Part shown: positions 5,238 to 47,506 of the stretch, one piece after another | Numbering within the stretch: the first letter of the stretch is position 1 | How the letters are laid out: every line of letters begins with the position of its first letter | Assembly: GCA_002422365.1 (NCBI GenBank) | Contig: DIUO01000036.1 | Coordinates: 38,759 to 102,758, forward strand | DNA length: 64,000 nt | Reading direction: 5' to 3' | Source: Proteobacteria bacterium UBA6156 | Lineage (GTDB): Bacteria; Pseudomonadota; Alphaproteobacteria; UBA2136; UBA6156 | Translations under genes and position numbers: made by a program | Notes under the pieces: model-generated | Told to the model about the DNA's origin: nothing | What the model saw: the letters and a program-made list of their open reading frames with translations, nothing else | Databases searched by the model: none

Positions 5238-6293
5238 GTGTTCTTCCGGGTCGGCACCAGCCGGAATGCAATCAACAGGATGAATGCACACGTGTGGAGT
5301 TCATGTACCAATTTACAACAGCCGCTACGTCGCCTGCAGGGGGGTGTGTTTCACATGCAACGCATTGCTAACGTCGCTTCTGGCCTTGCCGTACAAGGCC
5401 GTTATCAAGGTTTTAGCCATTTAGGAAGGCCTCAAACCTGGATTTTAGGGCTCTACGCAGCCACCACACTCTATAGTACGCCGCTGAAGGCTCAAGAGAT
5501 CCAATGTATCGACTACTATACCGTCGGCCAGAATACTTGCGCCACACCACAACCCTCCCCACAAGCCGATGCCAGCGCACCGCGCCTGTTGGCACCCCAA
5601 GCCACCGGCACCGATGAGGATAAAGTGGATGAATTCCTGGAAAACTACGGCAAGCCTCCGCGCGAATTTGTGGCCTTTTATCTGAATCCCACAGCCGAAA
5701 ACGCCCAAAAATGGGTGGCGGCCTATCAGCAGATAATGCAGAAAACCCAGAACCTCTCGCAACTCTGGTCGTCGGCCGAACAACTTTATCAACAAGACAC
5801 ATCTCAGCCCGTCGTGCGCCGCCAAGATGAACCTCTGGCCCAGCCGCAGCAGGTCGTGCCGGTGCAACCTGTGGCGCCCGTGGTGCGGGCGTCGTCCAAT
5901 CTCAATTTCGGCGGGCTGGGGGCAGGGGTGTCTGCCGGCCCTGGCGGCGTCCGTGCCCCTGTGTCGGCACCCTTAACAGTCACCTATTATTACAGTCAGG
6001 CCTGTCCCTTCTGTGCCCGCATGACACCTGAACTTAACGTAATAACAGCAAATTACAGTGGTAAATTAGCATTTACTTGCGTCGATGTAACGCCTGTCAC
6101 AGCCACACAGAGACCCGATCCGGCCTATTTGAGCGGAAAATTGCCCTGCCAATGGCGTTTACCGCAACCGGGAGAGCTCGAAGAACAGGGTGTAAAGCAA
6201 ACCCCAACGCTTTTAGTGCAGAGGGAAGGGGCATCAGCTGTGCGGCTTTCCGGCTACATGTCGCAAGCGCAACTCCAGCCCTTTTTCCGTTAA
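5238..6293 (+). CDS. thioredoxin-fold CxxC (CPFC) protein, candidate periplasmic thiol-disulfide isomerase (TrbB/TraF/DsbC-like)
   Basis: 351-aa ORF. The C-terminal ~110 aa carry a CPFC motif followed by the thioredoxin-like pattern (VTYYYSQACPFCARMTPELN...QTPTLLV). The Q/P-rich central linker is low-complexity. The start is uncertain (candidate ATGs at 5238, 5280, 5355). Confidence 0.5.
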   Translation: MFFRVGTSRNAINRMNAHVWSSCTNLQQPLRRLQGGVFHMQRIANVASGLAVQGRYQGFSHLGRPQTWILGLYAATTLYSTPLKAQEIQCIDYYTVGQNTCATPQPSPQADASAPRLLAPQATGTDEDKVDEFLENYGKPPREFVAFYLNPTAENAQKWVAAYQQIMQKTQNLSQLWSSAEQLYQQDTSQPVVRRQDEPLAQPQQVVPVQPVAPVVRASSNLNFGGLGAGVSAGPGGVRAPVSAPLTVTYYYSQACPFCARMTPELNVITANYSGKLAFTCVDVTPVTATQRPDPAYLSGKLPCQWRLPQPGELEEQGVKQTPTLLVQREGASAVRLSGYMSQAQLQPFFR

Positions 6294-6406
6294 TTCTTCT
6301 TAACCTCCTGTCAGGAAGGGCTTTCCCCGTTCCGCATAAAAGCGCAGAATACAAAAATGGTCGTGCCCCAGGGCTGGCCCTGTAAAAGCTGAGAGGAAGA
6401 AGAACG

Positions 6407-6724
6407 ATGTCGACCGCACAAGTTGTGGCTGCCAAAGGCCAGCAAGGTTTTGTTAAGGAGCGTCTTATATGGGCCAGCAAGCCCTTGGGTTTGCTGTTTC
6501 TGCTGCTCTGGGTGTTGCACCCCGCTACTGCCAGCGCAACCGACTACCTTCACATGCTGCTGCTCGGTTTTCTGGCGGGCACCGGCTATGGCCTGGTGCT
6601 ATACGGGGCGCAGCTCAAGTCCTATGTTCTGGTGCGCACCACCTCGCACACCAAAACGCCTAACCGTGTCCCCTCCGAATACTACTGGGGTAACATCGAA
6701 TCCATTATGTTCGACAACAAGTAA
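6407..6724 (+). CDS. small two-TM membrane protein, candidate detached membrane anchor of the downstream VirD4-like ATPase
   Basis: 105 aa with two hydrophobic helices (LGLLFLLLWVLHPA; LLLGFLAGTGYGLVLYGA). It ends 5 nt before the start of the ATPase ORF at 6730. Confidence 0.45.
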   Translation: MSTAQVVAAKGQQGFVKERLIWASKPLGLLFLLLWVLHPATASATDYLHMLLLGFLAGTGYGLVLYGAQLKSYVLVRTTSHTKTPNRVPSEYYWGNIESIMFDNK

Positions 6725-6729
6725 GCGCC

Positions 6730-8142
6730 ATGGCCCAAGACCTTAATCTCCCTGCCGACCTCCTCAACCGCCATTGCCTTGGCATCGCAGCCACCGGGGG
6801 CGGTAAGTCGAATTTCCTGAACCTCATCCTGAAGCAGCAGATGATGCGCGGCGGCGGCTGTATCCACATCGACGGGAAGAACAGCAAGGACGCCATCCGC
6901 GAGTTCCTGACGCTGGCCGAGCAGCACAACCGCTGGCAAGACGTCCGCATCATTAATATCGACGAAGCCACCCTCTCCAACACTTATAATCCCTTGCTGC
7001 GCGGAGACGCCGAGGAGCTCACCACCCGTATCATGTTGCTCATCGGCAATGGCGGAGATTCCTTCTTCCGCTCCCAGGCCAGCAAAGGCCTGGGCGCCAT
7101 ATCGGGCTTGGTCAAACGTATGGGCATTCCGTTCAGTTTCGCCGACCTCTCCGTGCTCATGGGCAGCGAGGGCGCCCTGCGTTATTTGCTGCGAGAAGCT
7201 CCCAAAGACACCCGCGAATATGTTGATTACAAGATGTTTTTCGACCAATTGCTCGAGGCCGACCGCCGCACCGGCGCCATGATCGTCAGCGAAAAGAAAC
7301 TGCAACACACCTTCGGAGACCTGTTGGGCAAACTGGCCGCCTACGCCCGCGGCCAGGCGCGCGATGTCCTCAACGCCTACAACCCCGAGGTCGATCTTCT
7401 CCAGGCCATCAACGAAAATCTGCTCGTCTACGTGGCCCTGCCTATGCTCAGCAAGGCGGAAGTCGCCAGCGACTTCGCCAAAATCTTCCTCTCCGACCTC
7501 CGCACCGCCGTGGGCCAACTTCAGAACGTCCCGCCAGAGCAGCGGCCCAACCCCACCTTCCTGTGCCTTATGGACGAGTTCAGCAGCTACGCCATGCCCA
7601 CCCTGGCCCCGTTGTTCGAGCAAGCGCGCTCGGCCAACATTTGCCTGTTCCCCTTTATCCAAACCGTCTCGTCACTGTCCGATAAAGAGCGCGGCCTCAG
7701 CATCGATTTCGCCCAAAAGATCATCGGTAACACCTGGAATAAAATCAGTTTTGTACTGAAAGACCCGGAGTCCTGCGAACAAATGAGCAAAATTGCCGGC
7801 CAGGCGCTCAAAGAGTTCGTCAGCAAAAGCGTCAGCGAAAACATCGGCTTCGCCAGTGGCCAGCAAGATGCCTCCATGCTTATCACCAGCAACCGGGGCC
7901 GGGGCATCAGCACCTCCACGCGGGTCGAGTACGACGCCGTCGCCCGCCCGGAAGACTTCAGCAACCTCAAGGCGGGGGAGGGGATCTACATGGGCCCGCG
8001 CGGGGTCTATAAAATCCGTGTGCCGCTGCTCAAACTGAATCAACAGGGCGGAGACATCGTCTTTCCTAAGTTCCGCATGCCCGCCACACCCGGCTTGGCG
8101 GTCGCCGAAAAGTACCATATGTTCAGCGCAACCGGTGGTTAA
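6730..8142 (+). CDS. VirD4/TraD/TraG-family type IV coupling protein-like ATPase (soluble domain only)
   Basis: 470 aa. Walker A GIAATGGGKS at residues 18-27; a Walker B-like hydrophobic stretch followed by acidic residues (LCLMDEFSSYA); overall TrwB/VirD4 nucleotide-binding-domain features. It lacks the N-terminal TM segments usual for coupling proteins. Confidence 0.6.
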   Translation: MAQDLNLPADLLNRHCLGIAATGGGKSNFLNLILKQQMMRGGGCIHIDGKNSKDAIREFLTLAEQHNRWQDVRIINIDEATLSNTYNPLLRGDAEELTTRIMLLIGNGGDSFFRSQASKGLGAISGLVKRMGIPFSFADLSVLMGSEGALRYLLREAPKDTREYVDYKMFFDQLLEADRRTGAMIVSEKKLQHTFGDLLGKLAAYARGQARDVLNAYNPEVDLLQAINENLLVYVALPMLSKAEVASDFAKIFLSDLRTAVGQLQNVPPEQRPNPTFLCLMDEFSSYAMPTLAPLFEQARSANICLFPFIQTVSSLSDKERGLSIDFAQKIIGNTWNKISFVLKDPESCEQMSKIAGQALKEFVSKSVSENIGFASGQQDASMLITSNRGRGISTSTRVEYDAVARPEDFSNLKAGEGIYMGPRGVYKIRVPLLKLNQQGGDIVFPKFRMPATPGLAVAEKYHMFSATGG

Positions 8143-8172: not shown

Positions 8173-8457
8173 ATGCTGAGTTCCATTGCAATCTTTTACG
8201 TCAATGTCATCGAGCCCACCTTGCAGGTGTTAGCTGTTGTCGCAGTCGTTATAGGTGTGCTCTACCTGCTCAACCTGCTGCGCGGCGGCGACCGTAAAAA
8301 CGACCTGATCACTCTTGTGGTGAATGAGTTCTTCAAAATGATATATAAAACAATCGTATTAAGCGGTAAGGCTGTGGTGGCTGTGGCAGGAATGTTGCTA
8401 AAAACCAGCAGGGTGATATTTGCAACATTACGCGACTTTTTTAAGTCGGAAATTTAG
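8173..8457 (+). CDS. small hydrophobic membrane protein
   Basis: 94 aa with two predicted TM segments; tightly follows the coupling ATPase gene. Confidence 0.4.
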   Translation: MLSSIAIFYVNVIEPTLQVLAVVAVVIGVLYLLNLLRGGDRKNDLITLVVNEFFKMIYKTIVLSGKAVVAVAGMLLKTSRVIFATLRDFFKSEI

Positions 8458-8557
8458 GCACCTCTCTTGATTGCCTGCGAAAGAAAGCCTTTAATGGGCT
8501 CACTTAAGCATGCGGTTTGCGCATGTGGCCGAGAGAACAATAAAGGAGGGGTGGGAG

Positions 8558-9442
8558 ATGGCCTACCTGCACAATCGCCAAATAGCCCTACAGGCCAGCG
8601 TTGCGGTGGCAGCGTTGCTGGCGGGGGGGTGTCAGCCAGCCGGGGTTACCCGTTATGCGCCCGCGCCCTACCCGGCCTACGACTACAGCCAGCAAGCCGC
8701 CCCCATGCAAGCCCCTCAGGCTATCCCCTACGCCGCACCGGCCTATCAAGCACTGGAAGCCGCCACACTCGACATGAAAGAACGTCTCGAGCGCGTCGAA
8801 AAAGCCATGTTGCGCCTCGACCGCCGCATGCAGCTCGTCGAACGGAATGAATTGTCGCGTATGGGCGGTCGGGTGAGCAGTGCCGAACCGCAAGCCCTCC
8901 AGGTGCGGGCGTCCACAACCCCGATGGCCGAGTCCGACGTGGCTGAAGCCATGCAGGCACTCGACCTTGCCCCGCAAGAAGGTTACCGCCCCGTCGCCAG
9001 CCGTGGCGAGGCGATAACGTCGGCCCTGCAAGCAGCTCCCAGCTTGTCCGAGTCCTCCTTCCCGGCCTCATCCGCACCGGTGCAGGTGGCCAGCCGAGGC
9101 GGGCTCCCGTCCTTGGCCGACCCCGCCCAGCCCCAGGCCCGCCACCTCAAGGCCGGCACCAACGATGTCGCGATTTGGACGATTAACTATACCGATGGTA
9201 AAATCTGGCCAGAGCGCACCCAGCTGCCCGCCAGCCGCCAGGTGGTCGATGTCCTGCGCGAGAACGGCAAAGCCAATATCTATGCGCGCGGCAAAAACGC
9301 CAGCGCGGTCGAGTTCCGCGAGCGCGTCAAAGCCCTCAGCCGCTATCTCTCCAAGGTCAGCAGCCTCGATACCGTGCCCATCGCCGCCATGGCCGCTCCC
9401 CATCTCGACGACGACACCATCGAAATCGTTATCACCCATTAG
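8558..9442 (+). CDS. lipoprotein with coiled-coil segment
   Basis: ORF 8510..9442. An RBS taaaggagg lies 8 nt before the ATG at 8558 (MAYLHNRQ...). Lipobox LLAGGC after a hydrophobic signal sequence, followed by a coiled-coil stretch (LDMKERLERVEKAMLRLDRRMQLVERNELSR). Confidence 0.55.
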   Translation: MAYLHNRQIALQASVAVAALLAGGCQPAGVTRYAPAPYPAYDYSQQAAPMQAPQAIPYAAPAYQALEAATLDMKERLERVEKAMLRLDRRMQLVERNELSRMGGRVSSAEPQALQVRASTTPMAESDVAEAMQALDLAPQEGYRPVASRGEAITSALQAAPSLSESSFPASSAPVQVASRGGLPSLADPAQPQARHLKAGTNDVAIWTINYTDGKIWPERTQLPASRQVVDVLRENGKANIYARGKNASAVEFRERVKALSRYLSKVSSLDTVPIAAMAAPHLDDDTIEIVITH

Positions 9443-9642
9443 GTTGATGAGATGAGGCTGATGAAAATGAAACAGGTCATGGCGGCATGCGGTCTGCCTC
9501 CGCTTGCCACCGGCGTTCGTCAGGTTTAATATACTCTTACGTTCCTCAAAACGAGGGGCGAACACTATGCAGCACGGCGCTGCAACCTTACCGAGCCCCA
9601 TCATCTGCGGGCCCGTAACTTCAATAACAGAAAGGATTGTTC

Positions 9643-10287
9643 ATGTCCGATACCCCCACGTCCATGACCACATCATCCACCGGCCATGCCGAAACCGGCG
9701 GCCTCGAAACCGCTCTCGGCGCCGTTCTTAACAAGCATCTTTCCAAAGGTAACGCACAGTTCCGTGCCCGCCTGCTTAACCAAATGGTGCAGCTGGCCCG
9801 CCACGGCAACTTTGCCGAAACCTTCATCCGCACCACGCCCGAAGGCACCGATATGGTGAACTTCGCCCGCATGTGGGAGTACGTTCTGGTGCAGGCCGAC
9901 CGCCAAACGCGCGGCTATGTGGCCAAAACCAGCCGTAACGAGTTCGAGCAAACCCGTAAGGACTTTGAAGACTGTATCGACTTCATGGTCAGCAAACTGC
10001 GCAGCGCCGGCCAGCGCCACAAGCTCGATCTCTCCGGCACCAACTTCATCTCGCGCGTCGCCCAGCGTTATGGCGTCGCCGACAAAGTCCGTAAGGGCCC
10101 TGCCCAAATCCAAGCTCAGCCGCAAGCCCAACCGCAAGCGCAAGCTAAGCCTCCGGTAGCAGCCGAGCAAACGGCCCCCATCGCACCGGAAGACATCACG
10201 GCAGTCCCCCAAGAAACGCCGCGCCCGGCCCGGACATCCAAGGCCAAGGCGGCAGCTGCAGCCATGCCGGATGTCGACGATATCTAG
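9643..10287 (+). CDS. hypothetical protein (acidic N-terminal domain, QAQP repeat linker, K/A-rich tail)
   Basis: ORF 9637..10287. The ATG at 9643 is preceded by the RBS aaagga. No recognisable motifs. Confidence 0.5.
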   Translation: MSDTPTSMTTSSTGHAETGGLETALGAVLNKHLSKGNAQFRARLLNQMVQLARHGNFAETFIRTTPEGTDMVNFARMWEYVLVQADRQTRGYVAKTSRNEFEQTRKDFEDCIDFMVSKLRSAGQRHKLDLSGTNFISRVAQRYGVADKVRKGPAQIQAQPQAQPQAQAKPPVAAEQTAPIAPEDITAVPQETPRPARTSKAKAAAAAMPDVDDI

Positions 10288-10472: not shown

Positions 10473-10814
10473 GTGGCCGAAAAAAGCAAAGGAATGTCCA
10501 CCTTCAGTACAATCCTCGTCTTCGGGGTGCTGATCGGTGTCTGTATCTGGCTGGTGTTGGTGCTCTCCACCCAGGGCGAGCGGCGGCTGGAACAAGCCTG
10601 CAAACCGCTCGAATACACCACCCAGTTCGTGCACGAGGTTGCCACCACCATAACCGGCCGCCAGCCCACCTGGAGTCTCTATGTCCAGCGTTACCTCATG
10701 TCAGGTTGCTACTATGGCTTCAGCATAATCTTCACCGAAACGCTCGAGCAAAATCCCCTCAGCGGCGTGCCCACCACCCTCGACAGCGACGACGACATCG
10801 GCGGCATTCGCTAA
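10473..10814 (+). CDS. small membrane protein
   Basis: 113 aa with one long hydrophobic segment (FSTILVFGVLIGVCIWLVLVL). GTG start with the RBS aaagga 8 nt upstream. Confidence 0.4.
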   Translation: MAEKSKGMSTFSTILVFGVLIGVCIWLVLVLSTQGERRLEQACKPLEYTTQFVHEVATTITGRQPTWSLYVQRYLMSGCYYGFSIIFTETLEQNPLSGVPTTLDSDDDIGGIR

Positions 10815-10825
10815 GCCGCTCTTCG

Positions 10826-12235
10826 TTAGAATAACTCCGCAAGCCGGGCATCAATCTGCCCGGCTTGCACATGGCTGTGGGCCGCCTGCTGGCGGGGGTC
10901 CATCACCACTTCGGGGGCATCGGCCAGGCTCGGCAGCGCTTGCCAGCGGCGCAGGGTTTCGGCATGGCGCGCGGGGTCGGGGTTCATTTTCAGCGTGGGG
11001 CCCCAGGCCTGCCCTTCCACCAGCAGCGTAAAACAGGCATTGCTGGCGTTTTGTCCATCGTGCTCGCGCGCCACCAATCCGGCTTCTTGCAACTGGTGGG
11101 CCAGGTGTGGCCAGGCCGGGTGGTGCAGGCCACCGTCGCTTTCCCACAGGTTCAGGGCCTGGCGCAGGGTGGGCTTCAGCCGCAGTGCCACCTGGCGCAT
11201 CAGTTCCTCTTGGCGCAGCCACACGCTGCCGTCGGCCATTTTCAGGCAGGTGGTTTCGGGGGTCAGGCTCGGCTGGGGTTCAAGCTCGGCCAGCAGGCTG
11301 GTCCAGTGCTCGGTTAGGTTATGGCGCAGGTCGTCCAGCTGTTCGGGGGTTATCTGGTCCACTTCCTGAACATTCAGCTGTTGCAGCTGGGCGTCGGTGC
11401 GCCACAGGTAATCCACAATCTCGCGGGCCAGTGGGCTGCTGCTCAGCGGCAATTGGTGGGGGGTGGCGTGGTAACGCAGCGCCACCAGCAGCGTGCGCTG
11501 CATGTCGCGGCCTTCAGGGGTTGTCTTCAGGTGCCGAAACGCCGGAAACGTCGAAAGCACAAAAGCGCTCATCCCCCCATGGGCCTGGCACCGCCGCCGG
11601 AAGGTCACCGTATCCCGCTGCCAGAACGACCAGAACGGCCGCGTAACCCGCTTTTCCTCATAGGCGTGCACCAGCGCCAGGTCTTTAGCCAGGGCGGCAA
11701 TGCGGTGCCAGGGGGTGGCGGCTGGCAGCTGGCGCATCATTTGCCAACGGGCTACGGCACGTTCATACAGGCTGGCAAACTCGCATCCCGGGCTTGCATG
11801 GTTGTGCTTGTTCTGCAGCGCAAGGTCTACCGGCCAGTGGCGGTAGCCTTGCAAAAAACCAATCAACTCCGCTTCCAGCGGGTGCAGGCCGGGCCAGTCC
11901 GGCGGGGCCACCATCTGGGGTAAAAATTTCGAAAGCGACAGCGGCAAAGGCACTTCCTGCCCCTTGGCATCAAAGGTCACAAACGCGGTACCATATTCAT
12001 CGGTCACTCCCGCTTCAAAGCCGGTGGCCAGGTTGCGGCGCAAGTTGCCCAGCAGGGCGGCGGCCCACACCATGCCAAAGCCTACCAAGGCACCACCACC
12101 CACCACCAGCAGGCCGCGCATATATTGGGGCGTATCAAACGCGTCGCTGGTTAAAACCGACCACACAACATGCAGTGCCCATAAAAACATCACTAAAAGA
12201 CTTAAAACCAGAACGGCGCGACCTTGGGGTGTCAT
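10826..12235 (-). CDS. hypothetical membrane protein (two N-terminal TM helices plus a large soluble domain); only sizeable minus-strand gene inside the locus
   Basis: ORF 10826..12310 (494 aa). Start proposed at MTPQGRAVLVL (12235). No HxH or Walker motifs seen. Confidence 0.5.
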   Translation of the reverse strand: MTPQGRAVLVLSLLVMFLWALHVVWSVLTSDAFDTPQYMRGLLVVGGGALVGFGMVWAAALLGNLRRNLATGFEAGVTDEYGTAFVTFDAKGQEVPLPLSLSKFLPQMVAPPDWPGLHPLEAELIGFLQGYRHWPVDLALQNKHNHASPGCEFASLYERAVARWQMMRQLPAATPWHRIAALAKDLALVHAYEEKRVTRPFWSFWQRDTVTFRRRCQAHGGMSAFVLSTFPAFRHLKTTPEGRDMQRTLLVALRYHATPHQLPLSSSPLAREIVDYLWRTDAQLQQLNVQEVDQITPEQLDDLRHNLTEHWTSLLAELEPQPSLTPETTCLKMADGSVWLRQEELMRQVALRLKPTLRQALNLWESDGGLHHPAWPHLAHQLQEAGLVAREHDGQNASNACFTLLVEGQAWGPTLKMNPDPARHAETLRRWQALPSLADAPEVVMDPRQQAAHSHVQAGQIDARLAELF

Positions 12236-12399
12236 AGCAGACTTTCCTTTGTAGGGGCGGGCCTTTCCACACATCTGCTGTCGCAGCGTGATGGTGTTTT
12301 GGTCACACACCAGTCATGAGATGCGGCAGGGCCTCTCCCTGACCGCCGTACAACTATGATAGCGTCACATCCAACAATCAACAGTCAAGCACGTCGGCC

Positions 12400-35039: not shown

Positions 35040-35079
35040 CACTTGTCAAATGGCCTTTCCCGCACCAAACTTTAAGAAG

Positions 35080-39190: not shown

Positions 39191-40627
39191 ATGGCCACCG
39201 AACCCACACCCGATATCATCGCCCGCCCCGGTGCCGGCGGCAAATCCGGCGGTGCCGAATCTCCCGGCGCGCTGGAGAAATTCCGTGCCTTGCCGCCCAA
39301 AATGCAGGGTGCCATCGTCATTGTCGGCCTTATCGGAGTGTTTTATGTCATCAGCTCGCTGCGTGGCGGCGGTGCGCCCTCGTCGCGCACGGTGGTCAAT
39401 TTGGGCCAGCCCAACGGCCGGGAGGTCAGCGCCACGTTCTCAGGTATCGAAACCGACCGCCCGGCCGTCATGCAAAGCGTCTTCGAGCAAAACCGCCGCG
39501 ACATGGCCGAGCTCCGCAGTAAAATCGAAAGCGACTTCGCCCTGCGCGACAAAGCCCTGCAAGATGCCCTGAACCAGAACCAGGAACTGCAACGCCAAAT
39601 GCAGCAGATGATGGGCGACTTCACCACCGAATTGAAAAACATCCAAATCGAACGCGCCCGCGACAACGAGCGCCTTGCCCAACTGGCCGACCAGCAAAAG
39701 CAACTCGAACTCAACGCACCCGTCGACGGCCTCGGCGTCGTGGCCGGAGAAGCCCCGCGCCGCCGCGCCATTTCCCAGGTTGTGCTGGGGGGAGGGGTCA
39801 TGGAGAACATCCGCAGCCCTTTCGGTCCGGCGGGGGCGGCAACGGGCAGCCACCTTACCAGCAGCGGTAACGTGGTCGCCAACCCCGCCGAACGGGCAAA
39901 AGAAGAACGCCTGCCCTTCATCCCGCCGCTCGGCTTTGTGCGCGCCACCCTGCTCAACGGGGTCGACGCCCTGATCGGCGGCACCAACACTCCCGCCCTG
40001 GCCCGTCTGTCCGGCACCTACAAAACCGCCATGAACAGCACCATCTCGCTCGATGGCTGCGTAGCGCTGCTGGAATTTTCAGGCAACATCTCCACCGAGC
40101 GCGCCACCGGCCGCCCCATGCGGATGACCTGCGTCTACCCCGACGGCGGCGCCGCCACCTACAGCCTCTCCGGCTACGCGGTCGACTCCATCGACGGCAT
40201 CATCGGCATCCCCGGCGTGCTGTACGAGGGCGACCCCACCCGTATCGCCGCCGCCATGCTGGCCGAGTTTGCCGCAGGCGTGGCCGAAATTGTCCAAGAC
40301 AACACCAACTCCAGCGTTACCACCACCAACAACGAGGGCACCACCTCCACAGTCCAACTGCCCAGCAGTGGCGAGGTGGCCGAGCAAATCATCGGCGGCT
40401 CGGCTAAGGTTATGGGCTCGCTGCGCGACTACATGCAAAAGCGCGCCGACCGTGTCCAATCGTTTATCCGCCTCGATGCCACGCGCGAAGTCGACCTCGT
40501 CATTCTCAACGGCACCGAACTGCGTAAATCCGGCAATGTCTGGAGCGCCCTCTTCGACGGCAATACCGACGCGGGCCTACCGTCGCAACAGCTGAACACC
40601 ACCGCAACGCCGGCACAGGCGGAATAA
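39191..40627 (+). CDS. TraB/VirB10/TrbI-family protein
   Basis: 478 aa (F TraB is 475 aa). A cytoplasmic N-terminus, one TM (GAIVIVGLIGVFYVISSL), a coiled coil, a Pro-rich spacer, and a C-terminal beta domain with LPFIPPLGFVRATLLNGVDA, resembling VirB10-family C-terminal domains. Confidence 0.65.
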   Translation: MATEPTPDIIARPGAGGKSGGAESPGALEKFRALPPKMQGAIVIVGLIGVFYVISSLRGGGAPSSRTVVNLGQPNGREVSATFSGIETDRPAVMQSVFEQNRRDMAELRSKIESDFALRDKALQDALNQNQELQRQMQQMMGDFTTELKNIQIERARDNERLAQLADQQKQLELNAPVDGLGVVAGEAPRRRAISQVVLGGGVMENIRSPFGPAGAATGSHLTSSGNVVANPAERAKEERLPFIPPLGFVRATLLNGVDALIGGTNTPALARLSGTYKTAMNSTISLDGCVALLEFSGNISTERATGRPMRMTCVYPDGGAATYSLSGYAVDSIDGIIGIPGVLYEGDPTRIAAAMLAEFAAGVAEIVQDNTNSSVTTTNNEGTTSTVQLPSSGEVAEQIIGGSAKVMGSLRDYMQKRADRVQSFIRLDATREVDLVILNGTELRKSGNVWSALFDGNTDAGLPSQQLNTTATPAQAE

Positions 40628-40641: not shown

Positions 40642-41118
40642 ATGACCTCACGCATCGCACCTCAACTTGGCTATGTCCTTCTGGCGGCTGCAACCGGCCT
40701 CGCGGGCTGCAAATACTACGGCAGCGCCCTCCCGCCGGAATACCCCATGAGCATGGGCGACGCCCTCTCGGTCGCCAACGACCAACGCACCACCACCGGC
40801 GGCAGCCAGCGCCCAGTGGTGCGGCACCCCACCCGCCCGCAAATCGAGCGTCCCAGCTACCTGCCGGAAAAAGAACTGGCGCTGGTGACCCCACCCAAAA
40901 CCCTGCTGGTCTGGACCTACCCGCACGTCACCGAAGACAACACCCGCGTCTTTGGTAACTGGAGCACCATCTTCCTCACCGACCGCTACGAGTGGGCCCG
41001 CCCCAGCAACGAACTCCCGGCGCGGGAAGACGATGCCGGCACCGTAGCAGGCCGCCCCAACTTAGGCTTGGCGCCGCAAGCTCTCCCGGTCTTACCGGCG
41101 GCCATGCCCACACCCTAA
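40642..41118 (+). CDS. lipoprotein, TraV-like by size and position
   Basis: 158 aa with lipobox LAGC. It lies between the TraB-like and TraC-like genes, as traV does in the F B-(P,D,G)-V-(R)-C order. Confidence 0.5.
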   Translation: MTSRIAPQLGYVLLAAATGLAGCKYYGSALPPEYPMSMGDALSVANDQRTTTGGSQRPVVRHPTRPQIERPSYLPEKELALVTPPKTLLVWTYPHVTEDNTRVFGNWSTIFLTDRYEWARPSNELPAREDDAGTVAGRPNLGLAPQALPVLPAAMPTP

Positions 41119-41162: not shown

Positions 41163-43760
41163 ATGCTGAACAAGGATACCTACGCCCCGCCCCGCCCCGA
41201 CCTTCTGGGCGAGCAGCTGCCGTATTTCGAGTTCAACGACGACAGCTCCTCGCAATACTACCGCATGCACCTGCTGAAGGACGGCGGCATCGGTATTTGC
41301 TGGAAGTGCCCCGTACCCGCCAGCTATTCGTATGACGACGGCTACGGCTCCACCACCAACGAGTTCCGTACCTTTATGGAAAGCGTACCCACCGACTACG
41401 AAGCGCAAGTCGTCATCACCTCGCACAACAATCTGGTCAAGCCTCTCCAGAATTACCTCGAGGCCACACCCGATCTCGAACGCGCCAAACTGCTGCGCCA
41501 GTCGCGGGCCGAGAAAATCCGCGACGCAGGTTACCGGGGCTATGCCACCTCCGAGCGCGGCTTCACCCGCCTGCGCGATACCTACATGGTCATCAGCCTG
41601 CGCTGCCCCGAAACCACCGAACGCTACGGCCTCCTCAAAGGCACCATCGAAATCACCTACCAGGCCATGGCGTTAATGATGGTCTCGCTGGGCATGGACC
41701 TCTCCAAAATGGCAGGCCGCTTTATGGGAGACCTCGTCAAAACCGCCATGATTGAATTCCGCGAGGCCGTGCTGGCGGTCGAAAACACCCTCAACGGCAT
41801 GTTCGAAATCCACCGCATGTCGCTGGAAGAACTGAAAGACCACTACTGGCAAGCCTATTGCCCCAGCTACAAAGACCCCGCGCAGAAAATCTCCATCGAC
41901 CCCCTCCGTCCCTTCGACGAACAAATCTTTCCGCTGCCGATCGAAAACAGCCACGACATCATCAAAATCGGCGACGACTACCACGGCACCGTCATGCTGG
42001 CCATGATGCCCGACAGCGTCATGGCCGACTATCTCGGCACCATCCGCCGCACGCTCAATTCGCAAACCACGTTTTTCTGCAATCTCACCTCGGTCAACCA
42101 GACCGCCGAAAAGGTCAAGCTCACCCTCGGTGCCGCCATGCGCAAACGCGTCGCCAGCGCCTTTAACAAAGAGGAAGCCGATCTCTACGCGCAAGAAGCC
42201 TCCGACGTTAAAACCCGCCTCTACAGCGGTCGCAAAATCGTCCGTGCCATGGTGGGGCTCATCATCCACGGCAAAACGCGCGAGGAAGTCGAAGACAACC
42301 TCATGCGCATCGCCTCGCAATACAAAAAGCTCTCCGTGGTGCCGGATATCGAAAAAACCATGGCTCTCCAGGCTCTCGCCTACAGCTGGCCACTCACCTG
42401 GCGCAACAAGTTTTCCGCCCCCTTTGCCCGCACCCGGCGGGTGATGAGCGACGACATCACCGACCTCCTGCCCATCCATGGCCACTGGGGCGGCCACGGG
42501 CGGCCCTATACCAAGTACGAAAAACAAATTCCTCAGTCGCTCTACGTCAACCGCGACGGCGAAATCTCCTTCTTCGACCACACCAGCGGCGACTTCATGA
42601 ACTGGCACTACGCCATTACGGGTACGTCAGGCTCCGGTAAAAGCTTTGCAGTCACCGACCTCGTGCTCCAGCTCTTCAGCGCGGGGATCGAAAAACAATA
42701 CCTGATGACCATCAAAGACGACTACGACCGCTTCGGCGAGACCATGGGCAAGCTCATCATCATCGACCTCGACCGCAAAGACGTCTGCATCAATCCCTTT
42801 ACCGGAGAAATCTCCAAACACCGCCTCCAGCAGTGGACAACCACGGTGGAGCTGATGATCGCTAAGGGCGACTACGAAATCTCGCGCGTCGAGCAACGGC
42901 TCATCGAGCAAGTGGTGCAATACGCCTACGATATCGTCCCGCCCGACGACGTGCTGCGTCCCACCTGGATCCAGCAGGCGTATCTGAAGTTCCCCTATTC
43001 CGACGAAGAAAGCCGCCAAGCCGGCATGGCCATGGCACGAGAAATCGGCTCCTATTGCGAAAACGGCATCTACGGCCATCTCTTCGACGCCCCGCCCAGC
43101 TTCACCGAAAAAGACAAGCTGGTGGTCTTCAACCTGCAAAACGTGCTGAACGAAAAAATCTCCGACGTCATCATCAACGCGCTGTTCACCATGATCGACA
43201 ACGTCATGTACCTCGGCAACCGGGGCGAAAAAAAGCACCTCTTGTGCGACGAAATGGTCAGCATGATCTCCTCCAAGGGCGGTGCCGCCGTGGCCAACCA
43301 GCTCAAGCGCGCCTTCCGCACCTACCGCTCGCTCAACTGCATGTGCGGCATCTCGTCGCAGAACGAGGAAGACCTGACCACCGAAGTCGGCCAGGCCATC
43401 ATCGGGAACATCACCAAGCGCCTCATCCTCAAGCCCCGGCGCGAGATGATCCCCATGCTGATGGAATCCTTGGGCCTGCGCGCGGAACGCCACCAAAGCA
43501 ACATTGCCAGTCTCGATACCCGCCCGGGTTTCTTCTCCGAATTCTATCTCATGTCGCCGCACGGCGAGGTCGTCTGCCGCCTCATCCCGGACAAACTCAC
43601 CTACGCCCTCGCCACCACCACGCCCGACGACGTCGCCGAAATCAAACGCATCCGCGACGAAGCCCGCTGCGATTGGTGGCAAGCCACGGTCACCTTTGCC
43701 GAACGCTTCCCCCACGGTGTCCGCGCCGCCCGCTCCTCCGCCCGCGCCCGGGGTGTTTAA
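41163..43760 (+). CDS. TraC/VirB4-family conjugative T4SS ATPase
   Basis: 865 aa (F TraC is 875 aa). Walker A ITGTSGSGKSF; Walker B KHLLCDEMVS; long N-terminal VirB4-type domain. Confidence 0.85.
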   Translation: MLNKDTYAPPRPDLLGEQLPYFEFNDDSSSQYYRMHLLKDGGIGICWKCPVPASYSYDDGYGSTTNEFRTFMESVPTDYEAQVVITSHNNLVKPLQNYLEATPDLERAKLLRQSRAEKIRDAGYRGYATSERGFTRLRDTYMVISLRCPETTERYGLLKGTIEITYQAMALMMVSLGMDLSKMAGRFMGDLVKTAMIEFREAVLAVENTLNGMFEIHRMSLEELKDHYWQAYCPSYKDPAQKISIDPLRPFDEQIFPLPIENSHDIIKIGDDYHGTVMLAMMPDSVMADYLGTIRRTLNSQTTFFCNLTSVNQTAEKVKLTLGAAMRKRVASAFNKEEADLYAQEASDVKTRLYSGRKIVRAMVGLIIHGKTREEVEDNLMRIASQYKKLSVVPDIEKTMALQALAYSWPLTWRNKFSAPFARTRRVMSDDITDLLPIHGHWGGHGRPYTKYEKQIPQSLYVNRDGEISFFDHTSGDFMNWHYAITGTSGSGKSFAVTDLVLQLFSAGIEKQYLMTIKDDYDRFGETMGKLIIIDLDRKDVCINPFTGEISKHRLQQWTTTVELMIAKGDYEISRVEQRLIEQVVQYAYDIVPPDDVLRPTWIQQAYLKFPYSDEESRQAGMAMAREIGSYCENGIYGHLFDAPPSFTEKDKLVVFNLQNVLNEKISDVIINALFTMIDNVMYLGNRGEKKHLLCDEMVSMISSKGGAAVANQLKRAFRTYRSLNCMCGISSQNEEDLTTEVGQAIIGNITKRLILKPRREMIPMLMESLGLRAERHQSNIASLDTRPGFFSEFYLMSPHGEVVCRLIPDKLTYALATTTPDDVAEIKRIRDEARCDWWQATVTFAERFPHGVRAARSSARARGV

Positions 43761-43897: not shown

Positions 43898-46498
43898 ATG
43901 GCCCTGCGACGCAAACTTCCCTCCCGCATCACTCCGGATACCACGCCGGAGGCCAAAAACACGCGCCAACCCGAAGCCGCTCAACCCGCCGCACCACAAG
44001 CCCCTGAGCCCGAAGTTTCTCCCAGAACCGCCCCCGCAGCAGCAGCAAGCCCTGCGGCCAATGCCATGGCCGAGGCCGCACTGGAAGCCTTCGGCACCTT
44101 GCCCACCACGCCGCGCGTGCTGGAAGACAGCTTCGCCGCCCCCGCCGCAACGCCAACTCCGCAGGCCGATGCCGCCCCCGCCACACAAGCCGCCCCAGCA
44201 CCGGTTGCAGTGTCCGAAGAAGCCTTCGTGGCCCCCGCCTGGCAAACCGAAACCGCTGCCGAAACCGCTGCCGAAACCGCTGCCGAAGCCTTCGTGGCCC
44301 CCGCTTGGCAAACACCATCAGCCGAAGAATCGCTGCCAGCCGTCGCCGCCGTAGCGTCGCCCGCACCTGCCCCGGTGGCCGAGCCTGTGGCTGAGCCTGT
44401 AGCCGACGCAAAAACCGAAACCGCCGCCGCATCCACAGCAGCCCCGTTTGCCGAACCACTCGCCGCTACCGCCACGCTGCCCGCGCCCACCCCCGAGCCC
44501 ACCCCGGAGACCGCAACCAACTCCATGGCCGAAGCTCCCTTACCCGAAGTCGCCTCCATCCACATGGCCGATACCGAAGAGCTTCCCACGGTCGCGAGCC
44601 CCGAACAGCCCACAGGTTCGGCCCCAGATGCCGACACGGCCGACACCGCGTCCACGGAAACCCCCGAAGGACCCACCAATTTCACGTTCGAAGCCTCGCG
44701 CCCCTCCGGCAACCGCATCAAACGCCGCGTCCGCGAGAAAAAAGCCCGCGATTTCTCCGCCACCGGCGCACCGGAAGATGCGCCCCAACCGCGCAACAAG
44801 CCGGTCACTAGCGCCTTTGCGCCCAACGTCCCGGTCGATGACAAACCGCTCGACCAGGTCGACAATTCCCTCATCGCCTCCGGCGTCATGGCGCCCCCCC
44901 CGCGCGACAGTCTCACCGGCCGCCTGCCGCAAGGTGTGGCGGAAAGTTCGTCCCCGCTGGCCGCCCCCAGCGTGCCTCAGGCTGCGCCGCAGGCCGCCCA
45001 GCCTGCTCCTGTTATCGCCCAGGCTACGCCCCAACCTAAGCCCCAGCCTCAACAGGAACCAAAGCCTGAACCGAAGCCTGAACCGAAACCAGAGTTCAAG
45101 CCAGAGTTCAAGCCGGAGGCCAAACCTCAGCCTAAACCGCAGCCTGCCCCGGAGCCCCAACCCGAAATGAAACCCCAGCCTCAGCCTGCGCCTAAGCCAC
45201 AACCCTCCGCAGCACCGCAACCCCAGGTGCAGCCCGCACCCCCGGCCACCCCGGCCTTCAGCCTATCGGGTGCGGCGGCATCGGCACCTTTGCCCCAGCC
45301 GCAGTCCAATCTGCCCTGGGCACAACCCGCGGCCGAGGCCGACTGGGATATCAGCCAGCCCGGACAAACCGAAGGCTGGGGCGGCCAAGTGCCGGAGTCC
45401 GCCTCCGAACCCGCCATGCACATGCCGCCTCAGGCCGACCTCTACAAACCCGTCAGCACGCCTGCGGCGGCACCGCGCGCCTCGGCCGGGCCCGCCTCCA
45501 TTCCCGGTGCCTCGTCCAAGGCCGCCTATACGCCCGAGCTCCCGGGCCAGCGCCGCAAAACCTCCGGCACGCCCTGGGCATTAGTGGCGGTGGCCGTGAT
45601 CGTGGTGGCGGTGGGCGGCGGTTACGTGCTGCTGGGCGGTCAATCGGGCGCCAGCGCCAGCCTGGCCAATCTTACCCAGCGCGGCGGAAGCTCCTCCGAA
45701 ACCCAACCCCTGCTGCCGCCGCCGGAAAATGCCGAATCCTCCTCCTTCGCCGCCTTGCCCGAGTCCCCCACCAGCCCCAGTGCCGTCATCGCCTTTGCCG
45801 ATGTCCCCGACACCGAGGCCTCCGAACCCATTGTCGCTACCGGAGACGAAGAGATTCCCCAGGGCCTCTTTGCCAAATTGCAAGAAGAAGTCGAAAAGGC
45901 ACGGGAACGCAAAGACGGCACCGCCCCAACCGACACCGCCCTGACCCCCGAGCCCGGTACCCCCACCTTCTCGCAAGAAGATCTGCAAAAAGAACTCGCC
46001 GCCTACCGCGCCGCCCTGGCGGGCAGTGCCAACCCGGCCGAGCTCAAGCCCAACACCTTCGAACCCAACATCACCGCCCAAACCGACGCCCAACTGGCTT
46101 CGGGCGCCTTGCTGCCGCCACCAGCGGGCACCACCCCGCCCACCGAGCTTTACACCCACAACCCCAACAACCTGCCGGTGGTGGCCGAGCCTGTCATCAA
46201 CGCGCCGGAGCGCGTGCGCACCCTGGCCGACTTCACCGAGGCCGAACCCTACCTGCCGGAGCGTGAAAAGGTCGAAATCCCCGCCAACATCAAGCCCAAG
46301 CTCGCCGCGACCGACTTCCCCTCGCTGGAGGTACTGAGCTTCGTCCCCGGCCAGGGCATTGTCGCCTTTGCCGATGGCCGGGAAGGGGTGCTGCTCATCG
46401 GCGAAAGCATCAACGGGTGGGAGCTTGTCGCCGTCAATGCCGACACCGCCGAGTTCCGCGCTGGCCAAAAAAGCTATCAACTCAGCGCCAATCACTAA
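43898..46498 (+). CDS. Pro/Ala/Glu-rich repeat protein with single TM and C-terminal globular domain (PilP/GspC/FimV-like architecture)
   Basis: 866 aa. AETA, EAFVAPAWQT and KPEP/KPQP repeats. TM WALVAVAVIVVAVGGGYVLLGG near residue 560. A C-terminal ~90-aa beta-type domain (GIVAFADGREGVLLIGESINGWELVAVNADTAEFRAGQKSYQL). Confidence 0.55.
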   Translation: MALRRKLPSRITPDTTPEAKNTRQPEAAQPAAPQAPEPEVSPRTAPAAAASPAANAMAEAALEAFGTLPTTPRVLEDSFAAPAATPTPQADAAPATQAAPAPVAVSEEAFVAPAWQTETAAETAAETAAEAFVAPAWQTPSAEESLPAVAAVASPAPAPVAEPVAEPVADAKTETAAASTAAPFAEPLAATATLPAPTPEPTPETATNSMAEAPLPEVASIHMADTEELPTVASPEQPTGSAPDADTADTASTETPEGPTNFTFEASRPSGNRIKRRVREKKARDFSATGAPEDAPQPRNKPVTSAFAPNVPVDDKPLDQVDNSLIASGVMAPPPRDSLTGRLPQGVAESSSPLAAPSVPQAAPQAAQPAPVIAQATPQPKPQPQQEPKPEPKPEPKPEFKPEFKPEAKPQPKPQPAPEPQPEMKPQPQPAPKPQPSAAPQPQVQPAPPATPAFSLSGAAASAPLPQPQSNLPWAQPAAEADWDISQPGQTEGWGGQVPESASEPAMHMPPQADLYKPVSTPAAAPRASAGPASIPGASSKAAYTPELPGQRRKTSGTPWALVAVAVIVVAVGGGYVLLGGQSGASASLANLTQRGGSSSETQPLLPPPENAESSSFAALPESPTSPSAVIAFADVPDTEASEPIVATGDEEIPQGLFAKLQEEVEKARERKDGTAPTDTALTPEPGTPTFSQEDLQKELAAYRAALAGSANPAELKPNTFEPNITAQTDAQLASGALLPPPAGTTPPTELYTHNPNNLPVVAEPVINAPERVRTLADFTEAEPYLPEREKVEIPANIKPKLAATDFPSLEVLSFVPGQGIVAFADGREGVLLIGESINGWELVAVNADTAEFRAGQKSYQLSANH
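44222..44313 (+). repeat. direct DNA repeats: ~26-bp duplication (gccttcgtggcccccgc(c/t)tggcaaac) flanking a 12-bp unit gaaaccgctgcc x3
   Basis: The repeats are directly visible and encode EAFVAPAWQT...AETAAETAAETA...EAFVAPAWQT in frame. Confidence 0.7.
45055..45180 (+). repeat. in-frame low-complexity repeat tract encoding (K/E)P(E/Q)(P/F)K units
   Basis: aagcctgaaccg and ccagagttcaag units are repeated; amino-acid repeat KPEPKPEPKPEFKPEFKPEAKPQPKPQP. Confidence 0.65.
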
Positions 46499-46612
46499 CA
46501 CGAACGTGCCAAGCGCACCCCAACCGAACAAATACTTGCCGTCACCGCGCTTGCGCCGTAAAATGCACACCAGATTTCTCTGAGACCGCCCGAAACACCG
46601 AAAGGCCGAGCC

Positions 46613-47506
46613 ATGAATATCGTCGACATCACCACCATCCGCAAAATAGGCGAAGAGTTCGGCTGGAGCGAACGCCAGCTGGAACTGGCGCTGGCCAACG
46701 CCATCCGCCTGTCCTATGTCGACCGTGGCATGCTGGTCGAGGTCGACGTCAACCTCGACCTTGCCGCCATCACCGTCCGCCGCCGCAGCGGCTATGGCGA
46801 GCACGGTGTCTGGATCGACATCAACACCCCCATCCTGCCCAGCACCAAGCAACTCATCGGCACCATGGAGCTGATGCAATGGGGCGACGGCGCCCCTGGC
46901 CGCATTCTCGAGGCCGAAGTGGCCGGCTACCGCGACGGCGGCATCATCTACCGCGTGCCGGATGATAAACTCGTCTACATCCCCGAAAATCTTATATCAG
47001 TCATGGACTTCCACGAAAAGCCGGTGGTTGGCAGCAAGCAGGTCATCACCATGTGCGCTTCCATCGACCCTGTCTCCAAAATGCGCGTCGCCACCCGCCG
47101 GGGGAAAGAATTCGTCGCCGCCGTCACCGAAGAATACTACCCGGACTGCATCTCCGGCATCTGGATGGGCGCCTCCAACTCCTGGGCGGTCATCCGCATG
47201 AAGCCCGAGCACATGTCCGCCTGGCTGGAGAAAGACGGCATCAACGTCAAGCACCTGCAAACCGTGCTGGGCTTGCGCCGTATTACGCTTATCCCAGAGG
47301 GCAAGGGCGAAGACGCGCAAGAAGTCCGCGACAACGAGCTCAAGCATTTCATCAACAATGCCTGGAAGGCCTGCAAAATCGCGCAGCTGGACCCCACCAA
47401 AATCGTGCTCCACCTGCCGCTGGAAGCCCCCGACGCGCGCAAACTCCGCACCTTCCAGTCCATGTTGCAAAAAATCGCGCCGGAGCGCGAACAAGTGATT
47501 CTCTAG
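46613..47506 (+). CDS. short NusA paralog (NusA N-terminal domain + S1 + one KH-like domain; lacks KH2 and AR domains)
   Basis: 297 aa. N-terminus IRKIGEEFGWSERQLELALANAIRLSYVDRG...VEVDVNLDLAAITV resembles the NusA NTD. The S1-like stretch is GRILEAEVAGYRDGGIIYRVPDDKLVYIPENL. The KH-like stretch is ISGIWMGASNSWAVIRMKPEH...LQTVLGLRRITLI. It is not in a nusA-infB context. Confidence 0.5.
   Translation: MNIVDITTIRKIGEEFGWSERQLELALANAIRLSYVDRGMLVEVDVNLDLAAITVRRRSGYGEHGVWIDINTPILPSTKQLIGTMELMQWGDGAPGRILEAEVAGYRDGGIIYRVPDDKLVYIPENLISVMDFHEKPVVGSKQVITMCASIDPVSKMRVATRRGKEFVAAVTEEYYPDCISGIWMGASNSWAVIRMKPEHMSAWLEKDGINVKHLQTVLGLRRITLIPEGKGEDAQEVRDNELKHFINNAWKACKIAQLDPTKIVLHLPLEAPDARKLRTFQSMLQKIAPEREQVIL

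Follow-up and report, generated by a model that had tools for sequence, protein, structure and literature searches.

A chromosomal locus of an uncultured alphaproteobacterium interleaves a type IV pilus/secretin module with an F-like type IV secretion system

In R64 and PAPI-1, a type IV pilus brings cells together and assists, or is essential for, transfer by a type IV secretion system (T4SS) (PMC12857230). The thin pilus of R64 is a separate organelle that only assists mating, while in the epibiont Southlakia both the type IV pilus and the T4SS clusters are essential for epibiotic growth, and DNA release by the Neisseria gonococcal genetic island (GGI) is noted in the same review (PMC12857230). 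Here we describe a locus at positions 5238-47506 of a 64,000-nt stretch (the window) from Proteobacteria bacterium UBA6156, in which genes of a pilus/secretin module and of an F-like T4SS lie in one 42-kb gene train. To our knowledge, the T4SSs that partner a type IV pilus all belong to mobile elements of the I or G type or, in Saccharibacteria, lie in clusters separate from those of the pilus. Conjugation-derived machinery with a host function, the feature that the window would share with them, is represented by the Neisseria GGI, Dot/Icm, the Bartonella/Brucella VirB systems, the Xanthomonas X-T4SS, and the Saccharibacteria T4SS; none of these is known to have an F-like core and a secretin/pilus module in one locus.

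Like R64 (IncI1) and the PAPI-1/ICEclc elements, the window has a conjugation-type T4SS beside a PilL/TcpQ-secretin-ATPase-platform-prepilin module. The T4SSs of those elements belong to the mating-pair formation (MPF) classes MPF_I or MPF_G, whereas that of the window is F-like, and the elements are mobile, with relaxases and integrases, which the window locus is not. We consider it fairly probable that the locus descends from an ancient conjugative apparatus, has become fixed in the chromosome and is inherited vertically, is under purifying selection, and has been recruited for a host function. Conserved gene order and flanks, codivergence with the flanks, host-like composition, and the division of the T4SS genes between housekeeping contexts in distant relatives favor long vertical inheritance under purifying selection and disfavor an integrative conjugative element (ICE). 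Open reading frame (ORF) calling with GC3 filtering gave 35 intact genes between 5238 and 47506, 34 of them on the plus strand and one (10826-12310) on the minus strand, so that the codirectional gene train read in an initial annotation of the sequence is real.

The T4SS core follows the order of F: two VirB2-like pilins, TraL, TraE, TraK, a lytic transglycosylase (SLT), TraB, TraV, and TraC. The genes assigned to the T4SS or associated with it are as follows.

5238..6293, +, thioredoxin-fold TraF/TrbB-like protein, 351 aa, locus gene 1 (Pfam Thioredoxin 2e-5, TraF 2e-3)
6407..6724, +, 105-aa protein with two transmembrane (TM) helices, probable detached membrane anchor of the type IV coupling protein (T4CP) (TM scan; conserved in relatives)
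6730..8142, +, T4CP-like ATPase without TM domain, 470 aa (TraG-D_C 2e-9, TrwB_AAD_bind 4e-5, TIGR03743 SXT_TraD 8e-26)
27330..27701, +, VirB2/TrbC-like pilin 1, 123 aa (frame, orthologues, TrbC matches)
27709..28032, +, VirB2/TrbC-like pilin 2, 107 aa (TrbC 1e-3)
28037..28306, +, TraL/VirB3-like protein, 89 aa (Pfam TraL and TIGR02762 across orthologues; pOS401 homologue 1e-6)
28411..29091, +, TraE/VirB8-like protein (Pfam TraE, best 3e-6, and TIGR02761 across orthologues)
29113..29838, +, TraK/VirB9-like outer-membrane core subunit (structure model and Foldseek)
29863..30705, +, VirB1-like lytic transglycosylase (SLT 5e-6)
35050..36888, +, Cys-rich secreted protein with 18 Cys, fast evolving, weakly TraH-like (topology, hhalign)
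39191..40627, +, TraB/VirB10-like protein (TrbI 2e-11; F-type TraB PRK13729 5e-19)
40642..41118, +, TraV/VirB7-like lipoprotein (lipobox, gene position, weak sequence signal)
41163..43760, +, TraC/VirB4 ATPase (TraC_F_IV, P-loop_TraG, TIGR02746 6e-61)

Among NCBIfam models, the best family for TraC/VirB4 was the F-type TIGR02746, with 206 bits compared with 71 bits for the G-type TIGR03744, yet 206 bits is far under the 567-bit cut-off of that family. Identity to the F plasmid proteins is 22% for TraC and 27% for TraB, and both score far under the family cut-offs. Searched one by one, the small Tra-like proteins matched no family except for a weak TrbC pilin match, so their orthologues were collected and each member was scanned against Pfam and NCBIfam. 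TraL (PF07178) matched all six members and TIGR02762 five of the six; TraE (PF05309) matched 5/6 and TIGR02761 6/6. TrbC/VirB2 (PF04956) matched nine pilin-like members (best, 1.7e-7), and TraA_gammapb matched four. TraK_C matched 4 of 23 TraK-like members, with TraK_Ftype also among the NCBIfam matches, and Pfam TraV matched a single TraV-like member of 12, at 0.11. TraL, TraE, TraK, TraB, and TraV are all present in F order, and all score under curated cut-offs. With the two pilins, TraC, and the transglycosylase, they make up what looks like a full outer- and inner-membrane core of a deeply divergent F-like T4SS. The initial annotation had proposed VirB2-like pilins, TraL, and TraE in this order, together with F-like TraB and TraC, and had allowed that the small proteins might have no T4SS homology; the family matches uphold the former and speak against the latter.

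For the TraK-like protein, an AlphaFold2 (AF2) model built from a 78-sequence alignment had a predicted local distance difference test (pLDDT) score of 89.8. Its best Foldseek matches in the PDB were TraK of F (7spb, 5e-14) and TraK of pED208 (7oko, 1e-12), as expected from the earlier TraK-like reading, followed by the VirB9 homologues X. citri VirB9, TrwF, DotH, and CagX. The TraV-like protein carries a lipobox, and its C terminus, which is extremely conserved, aligned weakly with that of F TraV (hhalign, E 1.6e-3); lipobox and position support the proposed TraV, while its sequence signal is weak. Profile-versus-PDB sequence searches with the TraK, TraV, TraE, p297, p726, and p494 families (the last three are uncharacterized proteins named by length) returned nothing.

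The VirD4-like ATPase of the initial annotation was likewise recovered, as a T4CP. It lacks a TM domain, and the 105-aa two-TM ORF directly ahead of it is probably its detached membrane anchor; the same split is found on plasmid pOS401, discussed below. The proposed TrbB/TraF-like thioredoxin protein was supported by Pfam, by TIGR02740 (TraF-like, 1e-3), by hhalign to TrbB (1.7e-5) and TraF (6.5e-3), and by a pOS401 homologue (2e-9). The Cys-rich protein (645 aa) had been noted as TraN-sized; no TraN signal was found, and its conserved N-terminal motif instead aligned weakly with residues 78-151 of F TraH (hhalign, E 0.014), with a probability of 50% to the pOS401 homologue.

Two relatives, L025 (346-1542) and L026 (1609-2985), carry an extra gene for a secreted, Cys-containing protein of 398/458 aa between yggT and the thioredoxin gene, plus a gene of about 100 aa in the same interval. 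The extra protein has a weak TraU signal (Pfam 0.045; hhalign to F TraU, 4e-4), and the window is without it.

The G-type TIGR03752 reached only 5e-3; among the matches of 59 small-subunit members there was no MPF_G family, and TIGR0374x-5x models gave no matches for small subunits. By gene order and best families, the T4SS part is F-like and, as had been proposed, neither MPF_G nor MPF_I. It shares with the F plasmid the order pilin-TraL-TraE-TraK-TraB-TraV-TraC, the best families for TraC and TraB, the TraK fold, a thioredoxin-fold TraF/TrbB-like protein, and a weak TraH-like motif, with a TraU-like signal only in relatives. In contrast with F, its pilins appear closer to TrbC/VirB2 than to TraA, it is chromosomal and apparently nonmobile with an embedded pilus/secretin module, and the window yielded no TraW, TrbC, TraN, TraG, TraD N-domain, TraI, or oriT proteins. 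The only F-specific signals in the window besides the core were the thioredoxin-fold protein and the TraH-like motif, and TraU was not found there either. Since the defining features TraW, TrbC, TraN, and TraG were among those not found there, the system is best placed as F-like but outside canonical MPF_F. A TM scan of the window proteins found no polytopic VirB6/TraG_N-like protein, and no VirB11 was found in the window.

The pilus/secretin module occupies the interval between the coupling-protein region and the T4SS pilins.

12400..13746, +, PilL/TcpQ-domain protein 1 (Pfam TcpQ 2.6e-4, weak)
13750..15690, +, lipoprotein secretin (Secretin 2e-19, STN, Secretin_N_2, lipobox; MshL 4e-34, GspD 4e-16)
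15781..17724, +, GspE/PilB-family ATPase (T2SSE 3e-68; GspE 1e-66, PilB 2e-66)
17729..18817, +, GspF/PilC platform protein (T2SSF 1e-21; GspF 4e-20)
18860..20212, +, 450-aa bitopic protein, candidate GspL/PilO-type assembly protein (single mid-protein TM helix at a conserved position)
20209..20781, +, 190-aa N-terminally anchored protein, candidate GspM/PilP-type protein (topology and position only)
20778..21359, +, 193-aa secreted or anchored protein (p193), fast evolving (topology, identity in relatives)
21448..22413, +, 321-aa protein (p321) with hydrophobic N terminus, possibly pilin-like, fast evolving (no family match)
22427..23587, +, 386-aa class-III prepilin with large C-terminal domain (N_methyl 1e-6; GspG 3e-8; TIGR02532)
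23606..23965, +, stand-alone prepilin-peptidase N-terminal domain, 119 aa (A24_N_bact 2e-24)
23978..25720, +, PilL/TcpQ-domain protein 2 (PilL2), coiled coil plus C-terminal domain (hidden Markov model [HMM] and hhalign)
25720..27255, +, PilL/TcpQ-domain lipoprotein 3 (PilL3) (HMM and hhalign; lipobox)

A domain of about 100 aa of the TcpQ/PilL type is common to the proteins at 12400-13746, 23978-25720, and 25720-27255 (local HMM and hhalign, probability 94-99%). In NCBIfam, secretin, ATPase, platform, and pilin scored as MshL/GspD/GspE/GspF/GspG-like and not as R64 PilN-like; the secretin, which has a lipobox and Secretin_N_2, had MshL as its top family and no PilN family among its matches. 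Public gene calls place the start of the GspE/PilB-family ATPase at about 15928, compared with 15781 here. The lipoprotein secretin, GspE ATPase, GspF platform, class-III prepilin, and A24_N domain of the initial annotation were all matched in Pfam and NCBIfam. For its GspL/M-like pair (18860-20212 and 20209-20781) the membrane topology fits, while no family signal was obtained, orthologues included, and the alignment of the 450-aa family with the 472-aa protein at the PilO position of pOS401 was not significant (hhalign). With only D-, E-, F-, and G-like signals in NCBIfam, a complete type II secretion system (T2SS) set (GspC, D, E, F, G-K, L, M, and O) was not recovered; minor pseudopilins and the GspO catalytic domain were absent from the locus. 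The A24_N-only protein is kept in relatives as a gene of 110-148 aa without peptidase domain. No small prepilin was found in the locus with Pfam or NCBIfam, the sole prepilin being that of 386 aa. This large prepilin is reminiscent of the PilV adhesin of R64/PAPI-1-type systems, from which the window differs by its MshL/Gsp-like parts, by the lack of a small major pilin, a full PilU, and PilT, and by a rearranged pil order. As already suspected, that order, L-N-Q-R-(O,P)-...-V-U, is not the L-N-O-P-Q-R-S-T-U-V of R64.

Outside the lineage, the only relative found was the 305-kb plasmid pOS401 (AP026971.1) of Comamonadaceae bacterium OS-4. In a tblastn search against 72,556 plasmids it gave the best VirB4 match (25%, 1e-43) and the sole TraK match. 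The plasmid is typed as nonmobilizable by MOB-suite, and every gene of the region except virB1 and yjcD is annotated as hypothetical. Its 48-kb region (L029, 60-108 kb) encodes, in this order, a p494 homologue, TcpQ (8e-14), a secretin-like gene, and two genes without assignment, followed by T2SSE, T2SSF, a small prepilin, a PilT-like ATPase, and a large prepilin. Then come virB1, a pilin, TraL-E-K-B-V-C, a TraF-like thioredoxin protein, and a Cys-rich protein, and after these a TraG_N-like polytopic protein (0.012, weak), a 105-aa TM protein, a 469-aa T4CP, and a canonical UvrD. Of the split T4CP (L029 35294-37209), the 469-aa protein is 28% identical to its counterpart in the window (1e-47), and the TraV-like proteins aligned with 95.6% probability (hhalign).

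pOS401 and the window share TraL/E/K/B/V/C, the split 105-aa plus ~470-aa T4CP, UvrD, the thioredoxin protein, p494, GspE, and a TcpQ-secretin-ATPase-platform-pilin module, which on pOS401 lies upstream. The combination of an F-type T4SS with type IVb pilus genes, which the initial annotation implied to be without precedent, therefore also exists in this distant homologue. Unlike the window locus, the pOS401 region is plasmid borne, with identities of 25-34%; it has a second, PilT-like ATPase, the TraG_N-like protein, and a canonical helicase, and it is without p726, p297, and the sigma/ParB fusion. Its pil order is R64-like (pilL-N-O-P-Q-R-S-T-V), which points to the window order as a derived rearrangement. 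The shared T4SS core, T4CP, UvrD, thioredoxin protein, p494, GspE, and pilus module suggest an origin from a mobile system. The pOS401 VirB4 has no closer plasmid relative (22% identity); given this isolation, the alphaproteobacterial clade and pOS401 form a separate F-related T4SS-plus-pilus class, possibly a new MPF class.

The contexts of relatives were retrieved through VirB4, TraK, and secretin homologues and numbered L001-L032. A VirB4 genome scan gave 14 loci, all in uncultured alphaproteobacterial metagenome-assembled genomes (MAGs), some evidently mislabeled. All related loci long enough to span the region share one gene order, down to the single minus-strand gene. The left flank with yggT is kept in genomes with secretin identities of 51-76%, and the right flank (GT4/wecA/galU/nth) is kept in four species; in some genomes the right flank differs while the left stays. 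Locus and flank diverge together, VirB4 identities of 90, 85, and 80% going with mean flank identities of about 78, 73, and 66%. In three relatives, identities were 90/80/75% for VirB4, 85/71/65% for the GspE homologue, and 92/88/60% for the T4CP, and these proteins and p297 are at least as conserved as galU, nth, and the glycosyltransferase. Tetranucleotide usage of the locus correlates with that of the flanks at r=0.97, so that the k-mer deviation for which a check had been proposed is not seen. Locus GC in relatives ranges from 30% (L032) through 40% (L017/L027) up to 64% (L011). In L032, the most distant relative examined (VirB4 58%, locus GC 30%), the block p726-TraB-TraV-TraC-p866-p297 lies between tsaD/rnpA/yidC and flagellin/ruvAB, and in L017 and L019 the TraB-TraC block is missing from its place behind the Cys-rich gene. 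A T4SS that is split and embedded in housekeeping DNA should be unable to transfer itself.

Some genomes of the clade are thus low in GC, with single contigs of about 1.26-1.36 Mb.

These data bear on whether the locus is a still-mobile ICE or integrated plasmid, inserted site specifically next to yggT, whose relaxase and integrase are unrecognized or lie outside the window. The T4CP, the UvrD-like protein, and the ParB-like domain are typical companions of DNA transfer, the sole nonlineage relative lies on a plasmid, p494, p726, p216, and p297 could hide a novel relaxase, and site-specific ICEs may share flanks between species. However, no relaxase, integrase, or recombinase family matched any of the 35 proteins at E<0.01 (Pfam and NCBIfam), no tRNA and no Rfam family was found in the window, no direct repeat of >12 nt links the two locus ends, and parS-like or att-like repeats did not exceed chance. 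The scans thus confirmed the reported absence of relaxase, integrase, VirB6, VirB11, tRNA, and att site from the window. The locus has the composition of its flanks and diverges with them, its GC follows that of each host (30-64%), the right flank varies while the left is kept in some genomes, and distant members have their T4SS genes divided among separate housekeeping contexts. The UvrD-like protein points the same way. In 6/6 lineage members its motif II (residues 195-199) is D-N-x-Q-D, with the catalytic Glu replaced and Walker A kept, whereas the pOS401 homologue (1e-23) retains DEMQD. In SF1 helicases, losing the motif II Glu should abolish ATP hydrolysis. This change suggests an ATPase-impaired helicase homologue and would fit a loss of DNA-processing function after domestication. 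A mobile element is on these grounds quite improbable, and the initial suggestion of a new ICE with its missing parts beyond the window meets conserved flanks, codivergence, and r=0.97; the alternative suggestion of a domesticated apparatus is favored by order, flanks, codivergence, composition, and housekeeping contexts. As to whether close relatives lack the block, related loci keep its order and share its flanks across MAG species. That the locus is instead a decaying, functionless relic of an old integrated element is extremely improbable. VirB6/TraG, TraW, TrbC, TraN, a relaxase, and a full PilD are missing from the window, and the T4CP is missing from one relative. Against decay, all 35 ORFs are intact here and in relatives, the Walker motifs read as intact, in the three closest relatives compared the core ATPases share 75-92% identity with those of the window, equal to or above flanking housekeeping genes, and the cluster persists across genomes of 30-64% GC.

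If the locus is a chromosomally fixed derivative with a host function, the pilus module would extend a fiber through its secretin, carrying the 386-aa pilin and fast-evolving accessory proteins, and this fiber would capture another cell. The F-like core would form an envelope-spanning conduit, into which the coupling ATPase would feed a macromolecular substrate, protein or nucleoprotein. The sigma-like/ParB-like fusion would probably regulate the long operon as its own transcription or DNA-binding factor, and the UvrD-like protein is more likely an accessory that binds nucleic acid or ATP than a functioning helicase. The cluster would not move itself but serve cell-cell interaction, for example by attaching to a partner, prey, or host cell and delivering into it. 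The identities of the prepilin, p321, p193, the Cys-rich protein, and p866 across relatives mark them as fast evolving, which fits surface contact with variable partners. Several points weigh against this picture. In genome C (JACKLD01), none of the three loci seen contains a T4CP gene, the catalytic domain of the prepilin peptidase is missing from the locus, and the conduit may be incomplete unless VirB6 and VirB11 are encoded elsewhere; the functions of VirB6, VirB11, and PilD may be so encoded or may be replaced. Translocation into another cell is proposed for a locus at which no substrate, effector, relaxase, or oriT was identified, cooperation of the two modules is deduced solely from their conserved interleaving, and, as all members are MAGs or metagenome contigs, the system is known from genes alone.

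The two modules might instead work independently and have only the operon in common, one being a pilus or secretion system of the T2SS/MSHA type for adhesion or protein secretion, the other an F-like T4SS with a function of its own. The MshL/GspD/GspE/GspF/GspG scores, the precedent of the R64 thin pilus as a separate, assisting organelle (PMC12857230), and the location of part of the T4SS elsewhere in L032, L017, and L019 are compatible with this arrangement. We nevertheless think it unlikely: T4SS-associated genes stand on both sides of the pilus module (thioredoxin/TraF-like and T4CP to the left; pilins-TraL-E-K to the right), the interleaving is kept across secretin identities of 48-76% and the same pairing recurs on pOS401, and the T4SS part is without VirB6 or VirB11. 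At the other extreme would be one chimeric machine, a core organelle that defines the lifestyle of the lineage and serves to attach to another cell and inject protein or nucleic acid into it (epibiosis, predation, or parasitism), in which the GspE/GspF platform and secretin replace VirB11/VirB6, p726, p297, p494, the Glu-less UvrD, and the sigma-ParB fusion act as a substrate-processing or control module, and the system founds a new MPF class with pOS401; so specific a proposal is rather unlikely to hold as a whole. An apparatus for DNA release or uptake, and not an injector, has its models in the F-type system of the Neisseria GGI and in Helicobacter ComB. Like the window, the GGI combines an F-like T4SS on the chromosome with proteins resembling ParB and helicases, and secretin/pilus modules are the usual front end of DNA uptake. 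But the GGI needs TraI, whereas no relaxase was found in the window; the locus has no ComEC/ComEA-type genes, motif II of its helicase is degenerate, and the fast-evolving pilin and surface proteins suggest variable partners rather than DNA binding. DNA release or uptake is accordingly improbable. Recruitment of a vertically inherited conjugative apparatus for cell-cell interaction remains the reading that we favor.

The remaining genes of the locus encode nucleic-acid- and transcription-related proteins and proteins without assigned role.

8173..8457, +, 94-aa two-TM protein (TM scan; kept in relatives)
8510..9442, +, 310-aa lipoprotein (p310) (lipobox; 41-67% identity in relatives; no attributable family match)
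9637..10287, +, 216-aa protein (p216) (54-71% identity in relatives; pOS401 match weak, 8e-3)
10473..10814, +, 113-aa single-TM protein (TM scan; kept in relatives)
10826..12310, -, 494-aa protein (p494) with two N-terminal TM helices, conserved system component (orthologue alignment)
30705..32522, +, UvrD-like SF1 helicase homologue, motif II D-N-x-Q-D (UvrD-helicase 3e-12)
32634..35039, +, 801-aa sigma-70-like/helix-turn-helix (HTH)/ParB-N-like fusion with C-terminal coiled coil (TIGR02937 1.6e-6)
37010..39190, +, 726-aa lineage-restricted protein (p726) with many invariant His (orthologue alignment)
43898..46498, +, 866-aa Pro-rich bitopic protein (p866) with conserved C-terminal domain (topology, identity in relatives)
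46613..47506, +, 297-aa cytoplasmic protein (p297), last locus gene (orthologue alignment; no Pfam or PDB match)

The UvrD-like helicase had been recognized in the initial annotation, as had the 801-aa fusion. The sigma half of the latter is the better supported, with Sigma70_r4 in 8/9 members, TIGR02937, and HTHs; the ParB half is weak, with ParB_N in one member of nine (1.7e-4) and a GERR motif read in the sequence. p297 is always the terminal gene of the locus and among its best-conserved genes, with identities of 95/85/60% in the three relatives (95% where VirB4 is 90%) and 58% in the 30%-GC L032 (14864-15754); its single-sequence AF2 model was unusable (pLDDT 43). A NusA-like identity for p297 was discarded (hhalign probability of 1.2% against E. 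coli NusA; no NusA, S1, or KH Pfam matches). p726 has an enzyme-like look, with invariant His including GHH, HTG, THPxHF, YH, and EYE motifs. Its representatives number only 41 among 1.84 billion proteins, and it has no pOS401 homologue and no Pfam or PDB match. p494, also without Pfam or PDB match, aligned with the pOS401 gene just upstream of the TcpQ gene (hhalign, 97.6% probability, E 4e-12). A degenerate MOBH HD motif considered for p494 was rejected, the His-rich stretch being an insertion in the window genome and genome A (L024) only. GrpE matches in the Pfam scan of uncharacterized locus proteins look like coiled-coil noise. In all, the locus offers about ten conserved proteins without assigned role that are tied to a T4SS.

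The clade is isolated. Its VirB4 proteins form 85 clusters with identities of 54-91%; the next matches, ordinary TraC proteins, follow only at 23-25% and about 100 bits. All 162 members of the TraK-like family are annotated as hypothetical, no precomputed Pfam domain being recorded for any of them, and a TraK scan of metagenome contigs gave one 3-kb locus. The homologue listings of the clade contained no isolate genomes; members are labeled "Alphaproteobacteria bacterium," "Pseudomonadota bacterium," or "Magnetococcales bacterium," plus apparent mislabels. MAGs of the clade deposited as "Blastochloris viridis," "Pseudomonas fluorescens," "Pseudomonadaceae," and "Magnetococcales" (L001, L003, and others) are probably mislabeled. 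Micavibrio was not supported as the host lineage, the genome paper on ARL-13 reporting no T4SS (PMC3189940), and we found no description of this system in the literature.

An F-like core with a pilus, chromosomally fixed across 30-64% GC, points to a conjugation machine exapted by a group that has no cultured member among the matches found. Current MPF classifications probably miss this class, because its VirB4 and TraK families are mostly hypothetical and pOS401 is typed as nonmobilizable. Comamonadaceae bacterium OS-4, with pOS401, provides a cultured handle on the cooperation of a pilus module with an F-like core.

By Pfam, the locus is flanked on the left by ordinary chromosomal genes (hemN-like, rdgB, rph, bcp, and yggT) and on the right by genes for a GT4 glycosyltransferase, a wecA-like protein, galU, an epimerase, nth, a porin, ABC-F, SCO1, flagellin, fliF, and fliG. 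A promoter/terminator scan gave counts equal to those of shuffled sequences. Over window positions 1-10000, which take in the left flank and 5 kb at the start of the locus, GC is 0.54-0.58, compared with 0.60-0.68 rightward; this shift lies off the locus boundary. At 54614-54904 (+), three tandem 66-nt repeats (54653-54846) encode GNFANNPxRAAxAGRKGG, resembling a KGG-repeat stress protein, and sit opposite a spurious minus-strand ORF. At 744 aa, the flagellin encoded at 58234-60468 (-) is unusually long; its central region is large and rich in Thr, Ala, and Gly.

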